NCBI GenBank assembly: GCA_050184475.1
Contig: JBFXAH010000007.1
Location: forward strand, 136,328-200,327
DNA length: 64,000 bases
Direction of reading: 5' to 3'
From: Pirellulales bacterium
GTDB lineage: Bacteria; Planctomycetota; Planctomycetia; Pirellulales; JAEUIK01
Shown: piece by piece, positions 48,926 through 50,254 of the stretch
How the letters are laid out: the number at the start of each line of letters is the position of its first letter
Position numbering within the stretch: the first letter of the stretch is position 1
Made by a program: the position numbers and the translations under genes
The notes under the pieces: generated by a model
Seen by the model: only the letters and a program-made list of their open reading frames with translations
Told to the model about the DNA's origin: nothing
The model's database searches: none

Positions 48926-50254
48926 ATGTCCACAATGGCCAACGAGGTTGACCTGCGCGAACTCGTCCTGTCGAACGCGCCGTTTGGACCGCAAACGATC
49001 AGTCAGATCAGCGACACGCTGGCCACGGGTACAAATAGCTTTCGCGCTTTGCGCGACGCCGTGCAGGAATTGGAGCTCAAGCCGGATCATTCGCCGGCTA
49101 GTCGCCTGCGCCTGGGCGTCTGCTTGTACTTGTTGGGGCGATACCAGAAAGCCATGGAGAACTTGAACGAGTCGGACGGTGGTCCGCTTGCCCAGTTCTA
49201 TAAGGCCAAATGCTTGATGGGTCGCCAGATGTATGCCGAGGCGATCAAGGCTTTCGAGGCCGCGGCCACGGCCGGCTACCCGGCCGATGAGTGCGCCTTG
49301 GGGCGCGTCGATGCCCTGCGCTGCGGTGGGGACGCACAAGGGGCGCTGGCCGTGCTCGACAAGCTCTCGGGCGCCGTCGAACAATCGGCGGAATACCTGT
49401 ACCAGCGCGGCGCGACGATCGCCGCCCTGGGGGGCAACCCCACGGAAGTCTGCGCGTTGTACGAGCGCGCGGTGGAGCGAGATCCTCAGCATCCGGGCGC
49501 GCTGTTTGGTGCGGCACTTGAAAACGATCGTCGCGGCAACGACGACCTGGCGATCGAATACTACGAACGCAGCGTGGGGCGATTTCCGCCGCACCTCGGC
49601 TCGCTGATGAACCTGGGCATCCTCTATGAAGATCGCAATCAGTTCGATCGCGCCATGGCCTGCTTTCAACGCGTGCTCGAGGTCTTTCCCGATCACTGGC
49701 GCGCGCGCCTCTTCGCCAAGGACGTAAACGTCACCGGCGATGTCATCTTTGACGAGGACGCCCAGCGCCGTCGCGACAAAGTCAGCCAGATGCTCAATGT
49801 TCCGGTGACCGACTTCGAACTCTCGGTGCGCAGCCGCAACTGCCTGCAGAAGATGGGCATCATGACCTTGGGCGACCTGACGATCGTCACCGAAATGGAG
49901 CTGTTGAACAGCAAGAATTTCGGCGAGACGTCGCTCGTCGAAATCAAGGAGATGATGGCCTCCAAAGGTCTCTCCCTGGGCCAATTCGCCAGCGAGAAGG
50001 CCCGCCCCGAAGTGACCTACGAACCCGAGGCCATGTCGCCCGACGAACAGGCGCTGCTGGGCCGGCCCATCTCCGACTTGAACCTCTCGGTGCGGGCGCG
50101 CAAATGCATGATCCGCCTCGGGCTGTCGACAATCGGCGAATTGGTGCGGCATACCGGCGATGAGCTGCTGGAGTGCAAGAACTTCGGCGTCACGAGCCTC
50201 AACGAAGTGCGCGAGAAGCTGACGACACACGGATTGCGGTTGCGCGGCGACTGA
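48926..50254 (+). CDS. TPR-repeat protein with two C-terminal RNA polymerase alpha-subunit CTD-like domains
   Basis: 442 aa. The N-terminal ~280 aa are TPR-like. Two segments then closely resemble the RpoA alpha-CTD: [57 protein letters not shown] and [56 protein letters not shown]. Confidence 0.85.
   Translation: [442 protein letters not shown]

Follow-up and report, generated by a model that had tools for sequence, protein, structure and literature searches.

The locus described here raises the question of what a bacterium does with a pair of RNA polymerase domains that are not attached to an RNA polymerase subunit. The alpha subunit's C-terminal domain (alpha-CTD) is among the best-studied bacterial transcription modules and it is almost always found as part of RNA polymerase. 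In a stretch of 64,000 nucleotides (nt) from a Pirellulales bacterium (contig JBFXAH010000007.1 of assembly GCA_050184475.1), which as a whole is called the window here, the gene at 48926-50254 on the plus strand encodes a protein of 442 amino acids (aa) in which this module is used twice, off the enzyme, on a scaffold of tetratricopeptide repeats (TPR). The protein is an intact gene product that is separate from rpoA, its gene is a phylum-wide housekeeping-type gene and not a rarity of one genome, and our tentative answer to the question is that it may be a general factor acting near promoters. The parts of the gene are as follows.

48910-48917, plus strand: Shine-Dalgarno-like GGAGGGAG, 8 nt before the ATG, read from the sequence
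48926-50254, plus strand: coding sequence of the protein with TPR and two alpha-CTDs, 442 aa plus stop, complete, ATG start
49031-49744, plus strand: TPR region, about seven helix pairs, aa ~36-273 (Pfam, AlphaFold2), net acidic
49754-49795, plus strand: conserved helix before alpha-CTD 1, aa 277-290 (AlphaFold2), D276 and L290 conserved
49802-49981, plus strand: alpha-CTD 1, aa 293-352, 34 of 60 residues identical to E. coli alpha 256-315
49982-50065, plus strand: acidic variable linker between the alpha-CTDs, aa 353-380 (alignment, AlphaFold2)
50066-50245, plus strand: alpha-CTD 2, aa 381-440, slightly basic, 24 of 60 residues identical to the E. coli alpha-CTD; the C-terminal tail RGD follows

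The reading frame has the codon-position pattern of a true gene, with a G+C content of 0.64, 0.42 and 0.81 at the first, second and third positions in a window of 63% G+C. The original prediction, which was made from the letters of this DNA, had described two alpha-CTD copies at the C-terminus, TPR-like repeats ahead of them and no N-terminal domain of alpha (alpha-NTD). All of this stood up to the searches, and the peptide strings that it cited all occur in the translation. The profile search that it had suggested matched Pfam RNA_pol_A_CTD (PF03118) in two stretches with E = 4.6e-41 and 138.8 bits against a cutoff of 23.8, the better stretch spanning profile positions 4-66 of 67, and the models TPR_2 (6e-21), TPR_1 (7e-20), TPR_16 (8e-17) and their relatives matched at about aa 55-265. 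When E. coli RpoA was used as the tblastn query, residues 256-315 aligned to window positions 49802-49981 (56.7% identity, E = 8e-16) and residues 239-314 aligned to 50003-50242 (38.8% identity, E = 8e-11), so that RpoA aligned through its CTD alone, and no alpha-NTD match was found in the whole 64-kb window. The NCBIfam rpoA models reached the protein through their C-terminal ~80 positions only (about 221-298) and scored far under their cutoffs (124.6 against 227.8 bits for TIGR02027 and 128.2 against 302 for NF003513). A genuine rpoA was found neither in the window nor in 80 related loci, and the neighbours of the gene, which are tRNA-Thr, an NHL/PEP-CTERM protein and a DUF4432 protein, do not match the RpoA-type locus (rpsM-rpsK-rpsD-rpoA-rplQ). 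The identical protein is encoded on contig JBFXKA010000069.1 of the metagenome-assembled genome (MAG) GCA_050174325.1. An open reading frame (ORF) of 867 aa on the minus strand (48596-51199) covers the whole gene and part of the next one; it was rejected as a gene because its pattern of 0.77, 0.47 and 0.64 is that of a high-GC shadow ORF.

How widely the gene occurs was examined in a phyletic survey and in a survey of its neighbours, both of which had been proposed with the original prediction. At least 7690 homologues of the 442-aa protein were found, and the best 120 of them are all 438-468 aa long and 65-92% identical to it from end to end. A scan with one genome per species found a relative in at least 579 genomes, in Planctomycetota as far as they are named; the 80 best of these all belong to this phylum and include complete chromosomes (Lacipirellula limnantheis NZ_CP036339 and OY970273). 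When 1.84 billion cluster representatives (50% identity) were searched with HMMER, 439 clusters matched at E <= 1e-30, and the full-length matches were nearly all 425-475 aa long and collinear. Among 120 database clusters and the 80 genome loci the identity was 62-92% over 98-100% of the query, and in members from other clades it was 26-46%, still from end to end. The architecture is fixed and consists of N-terminal helices, about seven TPRs, a hinge, an alpha-CTD, an acidic linker and a second alpha-CTD in a protein of ~430-470 aa. Named members come from Rhodopirellula baltica (RB1964), Lacipirellula limnantheis, Thalassoroseus, Thermoguttaceae and Phycisphaerales; the family thus reaches Pirellulales, Planctomycetaceae and Phycisphaerales, which is at least two classes of Planctomycetota, and no match that carried a taxon name lay outside this phylum.

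It is likely that the family is near-universal in Planctomycetota and that its member in Planctopirus limnophila is essential. In the supplement of the TraDIS (transposon-directed insertion-site sequencing) study of P. limnophila by Rivas-Marin et al. 2023, the gene Plim_0602 was scored essential by both methods. According to the same supplement 42 of the 45 Planctomycetes have it, as do 42 of the 79 genomes of the Planctomycetes-Verrucomicrobia-Chlamydiae (PVC) group, and it occurs in 0 of the other ~4,500 prokaryotes (PMC10632474). Since the 42 PVC genomes are the same 42 Planctomycetes, none of them belongs to Verrucomicrobia or Chlamydiae. The main text of that paper does not mention the gene. 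Plim_0602 is the probable orthologue of the window gene: it shares a legacy source-given name with RB1964, its length, calculated as 451 aa (1/0.000738 = 1355 nt), is that of the Planctomycetaceae clade (450-451 aa), its phyletic pattern is the same as that of the family, and Plim_0600, two genes away, encodes a SpoIID/LytB protein, which parallels the SpoIID neighbour of the family gene in one clade. The rpoA of P. limnophila is a different gene, Plim_0499, which lies between rpsK and rplQ and whose calculated length of 336 aa (4/0.0039604 = 1010 nt) is that of a normal full-length alpha, so that RpoA of this species probably keeps its own CTD. The idea that the family supplies in trans a CTD that RpoA has lost was set aside for this reason, because with a full-length Plim_0499 there is no missing CTD for the family to replace. 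A full-text search of the literature found no study of RB1964, of Plim_0602 or of the architecture of TPR with two alpha-CTDs, in keeping with the remark in the original prediction that such a mode of transcription control is poorly characterised.

In the AlphaFold2 model that was built with a 103-sequence alignment (predicted local distance difference test score, pLDDT, 92.9; predicted template modelling score, pTM, 0.68), two short N-terminal helices are followed by 14 TPR-type helices (aa 36-273; pLDDT 90-98), a hinge of lower confidence (aa 271-277), the helix 277-290, a four-helix alpha-CTD at ~293-352, the linker and a second alpha-CTD at ~381-440. Both alpha-CTD folds are predicted to be canonical four-helix folds with two helix-hairpin-helix motifs. 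The pLDDT of the linker between them was below 50 with a shallow alignment and 74-83 with a deep one, and both linkers were disordered in the shallow-alignment model. In the window protein the isoelectric point (pI) is 4.86 for alpha-CTD 1, 8.96 for alpha-CTD 2 and 5.2 for the whole protein. Between them the two domains share 47% identity, and alpha-CTD 1 shares 57% with the E. coli alpha-CTD; these values indicate that the duplication is old, in line with the phylum-wide spread. When the first model was compared to the PDB with Foldseek, the matches were all generic TPR superhelices such as CTPR, OGT and APC/C subunits, with CTPR and OGT at the top (E = 1e-9 to 1e-7), and no structure that combines TPR and alpha-CTD was among them. 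A sequence search of the PDB returned genuine alpha subunits only, and the closest to alpha-CTD 2 were mycobacterial alpha-CTDs.

Conservation, taken as the mean frequency of the top residue in 121 mutually distant representatives, was highest in alpha-CTD 1 (0.77), followed by alpha-CTD 2 (0.61), the TPR region (0.45), the N-terminus (0.31) and the inter-CTD linker, where it was lowest (0.26). The alpha-CTD modules are more strongly constrained than the TPR part. Residue percentages, charges and lengths were determined in 232 diverse aligned members and are given in E. coli alpha numbering. In all 232 members alpha-CTD 1 is exactly 60 residues long, the linker between the domains is 16-50 aa long with a mean net charge of -2.9, and the mean net charge of the TPR region is -7.7. 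In E. coli the '265 determinant' for UP-element DNA binding consists of R265, N268, C269, G296, K298 and S299, and the '261 determinant' is the acidic pair D259 and E261, which touches region 4 of sigma. The equivalent positions in the family are as follows.

R265: R in 100% of alpha-CTD 1 and in 99% of alpha-CTD 2
N268: N in 89% of alpha-CTD 1; K or R in 86% of alpha-CTD 2
C269: C in 91% of alpha-CTD 1 and in 67% of alpha-CTD 2
G296: G in 100% of alpha-CTD 1 and in 99% of alpha-CTD 2
K297: E in 89% of alpha-CTD 1; V or Q in alpha-CTD 2
K298: T in 97% of alpha-CTD 1 and in 93% of alpha-CTD 2
S299: S in 100% of alpha-CTD 1 and in 97% of alpha-CTD 2
D259: D in 84% and E in 14% of alpha-CTD 1 (D296 in the window protein); variable in alpha-CTD 2 (D384 in the window protein)
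E261: E in 88% of alpha-CTD 1 (E298 in the window protein); E, N or D in alpha-CTD 2 (N386 in the window protein)

At the positions of the 265 determinant, domain 1 therefore reads R, N, C, G, T, S, with five of six kept, and domain 2 reads R, K, C, G, T, S, with four of six kept. The acidic pair of the 261 determinant is present, as residues, in alpha-CTD 1. Both alpha-CTDs carry the hairpin signature NFG-x-TS, which is NFGETS and NFGVTS in the window protein, whereas genuine alpha-CTDs of solved structure have Lys at 298 (GKKS in E. coli and GQKS in Mycobacterium). That R265, G296 and S299 are kept while K298 is Thr means that the nucleic-acid-facing scaffold is preserved with a fixed, family-specific alteration. 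The replacement of K298 by Thr and of K297 by Glu/Val suggests that contacts to the backbone are altered or weaker, and that the DNA preference would be unlike that for canonical UP elements.

The tRNA-Thr that had been seen upstream of the gene is present, and the region between its promoter candidate and the gene is made up as follows.

48574-48602, plus strand: sigma-70-like promoter candidate of putative function, TTGACG (48574-48579), 17-nt spacer, TAACGT (48597-48602)
48637-48711, plus strand: tRNA-Thr, anticodon CGT (ARAGORN; Rfam tRNA 60 bits, E = 6e-12)
48712-48925, plus strand: spacer and 5' leader, 214 nt, from the sequence

The linkage is conserved: of 80 Pirellulales loci, 64 have tRNA-Thr(CGT) immediately upstream of the orthologous gene and in the same orientation. 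In these 64 loci the spacers from tRNA to start codon are 26-367 nt long with a median of 96.5 nt, 15 spacers being 60 nt or less, and terminator-like hairpins stand between the tRNA and the gene in 6 loci only. The pattern CTTGAC(G/T)-N17-18-TAnnnT is found upstream of the tRNA in many related loci (for example numbers L006, L008, L033, L035, L042, L066, L074 and L076 of our survey); the candidate at 48574-48602 was omitted by the consensus scanner, its -10 matching at only 3 of 6 positions. Because the spacers are short, terminator-like hairpins are rare and the promoter candidate lies upstream of the tRNA, it is likely, to judge from these sequences, that tRNA-Thr and the gene are co-transcribed in Pirellulales. 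This is least certain in the window itself because the spacer of 214 nt could hold a promoter of its own. On the plus strand of this leader the scanner found no terminator-like site, and a looser search gave one weak hairpin with a poor T tail; apart from the tRNA no Rfam element was found there. No tRNA was found near the gene in the four distant-clade loci that were scanned, which are ruvA-linked and groEL-linked.

A local operon logic was rejected because the neighbours of the gene in the window adjoin it in 0-2 of 80 loci; these non-conserved neighbours encode the NHL/PEP-CTERM, DUF1559 and DUF4432 proteins, an EEP nuclease, topoisomerase VI A and B, a response regulator with an HD domain (RR-HD) and a hybrid kinase. 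Downstream of the gene in the Pirellulales loci are tgt (46 of 80), yajC (30 of 80) and secDF (22 of 80). In a distant clade (loci L082, L084, L085, L087 and L088) ruvA lies 9-100 nt downstream; this arrangement, with ruvA on the same strand, was seen in three distant members with two upstream contexts, and in two of the three ruvA-linked cases ffh-rpsP is divergent upstream; RuvA is a helix-hairpin-helix DNA-binding protein. In another clade groEL-groES-dnaJ-grpE is upstream of the gene, in the Thalassoroseus clade (L089 and L090) the gene immediately precedes the S10 operon, with rpsJ 186 nt downstream of it and in the same orientation, and in a further clade a SpoIID-domain gene is downstream. 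The common theme of these neighbourhoods is that they are housekeeping and growth-linked, and they share no target operon. A defence-system reading was also rejected, because the matches to PglW were weak and came from the alpha-CTD part only, and the neighbours were PADLOC-negative.

What the protein does can be proposed from these results. The explanation that we favour, though with some reserve, is that it is a phylum-specific general (housekeeping) factor near promoters which would read DNA with its two alpha-CTD modules and couple to RNA polymerase or to a partner. Both alpha-CTDs would act as helix-hairpin-helix readers of the DNA minor groove, as they do in RNA polymerase, because the Arg that corresponds to E. 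coli R265 and inserts into the groove does not vary in either domain and the hairpin Gly and Ser are kept. In RNA polymerase the two alpha-CTDs of the alpha dimer occupy the proximal and distal UP-element subsites, and here the flexible acidic linker of 16-50 aa may let the two domains sit at two neighbouring sites. With its acidic pair, alpha-CTD 1 may have retained the surface that E. coli alpha uses on sigma region 4, and the acidic TPR platform would bind a partner protein, which could be RNA polymerase, sigma or another factor. Such a factor would be general and promoter-proximal and not a local regulator, and its synthesis would be tied to growth, the gene lying behind a tRNA in Pirellulales and before the S10 operon or beside ffh-rpsP or ruvA elsewhere.

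Several points weigh against a general promoter factor. Both the DNA binding and the association with RNA polymerase are what we infer from the residues and the predicted fold. In both domains Thr replaces K298, a main contact of E. coli alpha to the UP element, and in domain 1 Glu stands in place of K297. The neighbourhoods concern translation, secretion and recombination as much as transcription. The co-transcription with the tRNA is deduced from the arrangement of the locus, where the spacer is long enough for a separate promoter, and the window, which is G+C-rich, shows no A/T-rich UP-like tract upstream of the candidate promoter of the tRNA. Plim_0602 was assigned to the family by its name, length, phyletic pattern and neighbour and not by its sequence, its apparent essentiality may reflect polarity on Plim_0603, a neighbour that is itself essential, and the TraDIS authors themselves caution that condensed DNA may exclude the transposon (PMC10632474).

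A more specific form of the promoter-factor explanation, which we regard as rather unlikely as it stands, is that the protein is an essential Planctomycetota-specific general transcription factor that would give RNA polymerase a second, detachable pair of alpha-CTDs. The TPR part would dock on the enzyme or on sigma, the modified alpha-CTDs would read promoter-upstream DNA, and synthesis would be coupled to that of stable-RNA and ribosomal-protein operons. If this were true, the protein would in effect extend the alpha subunit in trans.

The protein could also have nothing to do with RNA polymerase and be an architectural or DNA-transaction protein that binds DNA non-specifically, its TPR part self-associating or recruiting repair or recombination factors, with a role in the nucleoid or in recombination. 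The tight linkage to ruvA in three distant members with two upstream contexts would fit such a role, as would the intact helix-hairpin-helix scaffolds with their invariant groove-inserting Arg and the report that planctomycete DNA is highly condensed (PMC10632474). The ruvA linkage is, however, seen in some clades only, and elsewhere the gene is found with the tRNA, with tgt-yajC-secDF, with the S10 operon or with SpoIID. In addition, an abundant nucleoid protein would not usually be acidic overall, as this one is (pI 5.2), and the sigma-contact-type acidic pair in domain 1 would be left unexplained. We consider an architectural role unlikely.

The change of K298 to Thr in both domains throughout the family, and of K297 to Glu in domain 1, could also mean that the alpha-CTDs have lost nucleic-acid binding and now dock proteins, in which case the protein would be a pure protein-protein adaptor whose TPR part assembles or chaperones a complex (sigma/anti-sigma, NusA-type or translation-linked). 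This would accord with the fact that alpha-CTDs are known protein-docking modules, with contacts to CAP, Spx and NusA AR2, and with neighbourhoods that are rich in translation and secretion genes. The deep-alignment AlphaFold2 model, with a pTM of 0.68 and linkers of moderate confidence, also hints at a packed and not a beads-on-a-string arrangement. What makes an adaptor of this kind less likely again is the invariant R265 in both domains together with 97-100% conservation of G296 and S299, which are hard to explain without a nucleic-acid ligand.

The idea put forward with the original prediction was that of a decoy or competitor, in which the free alpha-CTD pair titrates activators or blocks UP-like DNA and so damps transcription. 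The anatomy of a free alpha-CTD pair on a TPR scaffold holds, and the conservation of the tRNA linkage and the K298-to-Thr change in both alpha-CTDs had been missed. In a variant of this idea the protein possibly exerts negative feedback on stable-RNA promoters, the gene itself being behind a tRNA promoter, and its place behind tRNA-Thr in 64 of 80 loci would permit such feedback. In favour of a competitor, alpha-CTD 1, at 57% identity to the E. coli alpha-CTD, has retained the parts used as docking surfaces (TE.ELL and the acidic D/E pair), and the lack of an alpha-NTD bars the protein from the core enzyme. It is rare, however, for a pure decoy to be essential or to be kept universally, whereas Plim_0602 was scored essential and the family occurs in 42 of 45 Planctomycetes; nor would a dispensable decoy be expected to be near-universal with fixed length and architecture. 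A decoy would also leave the conserved TPR half without a role, and the tRNA linkage is absent outside Pirellulales in the four distant-clade loci scanned. On balance a decoy is improbable. Finally, that the gene is a mis-assembled or decayed rpoA fragment fused to a TPR gene, the case against itself that the original prediction had named, has next to nothing left in its favour beyond the name 'DNA-directed RNA polymerase subunit alpha' that JGI pipelines give to many members, because the reading frame is unbroken and its GC pattern is that of coding DNA, the same length and architecture recur in hundreds of genomes, complete chromosomes NZ_CP036339 and OY970273 included, at a full-length identity of 26-92% among members, and P. 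limnophila has a separate rpoA (Plim_0499).

Among known systems the closest relative in sequence is the alpha-CTD of RpoA (PF03118; E. coli ~249-329), which is the same domain family and occurs twice here, with the equivalents of R265, N268 (in domain 1), C269, G296, S299, D259 and E261 conserved. Unlike RpoA, the family protein has no alpha-NTD and thus neither alpha-type dimerisation nor assembly with beta and beta', and its two CTDs are covalently in tandem while in RNA polymerase they are joined by the NTD dimer; it also differs in having Thr for K298 in both domains, Glu or Val/Gln for K297 and Lys/Arg for N268 in domain 2. The two non-identical alpha-CTDs recall Francisella alpha1 and alpha2 (PDB 6wmp), but each of those is a whole alpha subunit with its NTD, and the two pair as a heterodimer within the enzyme. 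Functionally the nearest analogues, and analogues only, are CarD and RbpA of Actinobacteria and GrgA of Chlamydia. The family resembles these in being phylum-restricted, near-universal there, probably essential and placed among housekeeping genes and not beside a target operon. There is no relationship in sequence or fold, and the association of those three with RNA polymerase has been demonstrated, while that of the family protein is a proposal. CarD also makes a minor-groove contact (PMC4593161). A TPR module with or beside a promoter-binding function is likewise found in the SARP-NOD-TPR protein AfsR (PMC10936776) and in SicA with InvF (PMC10977090), for which an in silico study predicts an interplay with the alpha-CTD (PMC10977090). 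These differ in that their DNA binding is via winged-helix or AraC-type domains, in that they have no alpha-CTD and in that they are local or pathway regulators. The BREX kinase PglW gives a weak profile match that is confined to the alpha-CTD part (NCBIfam, E = 6e-6; PADLOC, E = 1.8e-6; 24 bits against a cutoff of 990), and the window protein has no kinase domain and no BREX neighbourhood. The match to PRK07758, a stand-alone family of ~95 aa, also runs through the alpha-CTD part (E = 7e-11) and is far below the cutoff, and that family has another length and architecture.

The architecture itself is not new, as it has long been in the databases under generic or wrong names. What is new here is that it is fixed across the phylum, that the gene is probably essential, that its linkage to tRNA-Thr is conserved and that both alpha-CTDs carry the K298T signature. 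If the protein acts at promoters it would represent a new class of lineage-specific general transcription factor and would give work on transcription in planctomycetes, whose machinery is little known, a concrete starting point. In Planctomycetes, 108 essential proteins that are phylum-specific and of unknown function were counted by the TraDIS authors (PMC10632474). There is a practical side as well, in that single-copy marker sets and automatic naming make use of PF03118 and the KEGG Orthology number K03040. The family is widely mislabelled, since JGI/KEGG-style pipelines call most members 'DNA-directed RNA polymerase subunit alpha' (K03040/COG0202), and as a result planctomycete genomes show a spurious extra 'rpoA'. 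PF03118 serves as a single-copy marker in some phylogenomic sets.

The remaining genes of the window gave some minor observations. The DUF4432 gene lies downstream at 50273-51496 on the plus strand (E = 3e-97) and is present in 1 of 80 related loci. Its ORF starts with TTG at 50273 and has 407 aa, while the public annotation of the identical contig gives 386 aa, so that the true start is probably ~63 nt further in. Upstream, the minus strand encodes at 46029-48482 a DUF1559/N-methyl protein (type IV pilin-like prepilin) along with an NHL-repeat protein that bears a PEP-CTERM sorting signal; both are typical of expanded planctomycete families. The two subunits of topoisomerase VI are encoded on the plus strand at 53300-55675 (subunit B, with Topo-VIb_trans and HATPase_c) and 55708-56943 (subunit A, with TP6A_N and Spo11 Toprim); this is a type IIB topoisomerase of archaeal/eukaryote type in a planctomycete, and the pair is also on the near-identical MAG contig (L001). 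An ORF of the Phage_integrase family (2602-3747, minus strand) lies beside tRNA-Arg(CCT) at 3852-3925 and tRNA-Ser(CGA) at 4013-4095, and the three (2602-4095) may mark the edge of an integrated element. At 4934-8572 on the minus strand three genes for a transglutaminase-like protein, an Alpha-E domain protein and a circularly permuted ATP-grasp protein form a recurrent cluster of unknown function, and at 29867-32995 on the minus strand a protein of 1042 aa is encoded that has TPR repeats and a C-terminal CHAT (caspase-like) domain.

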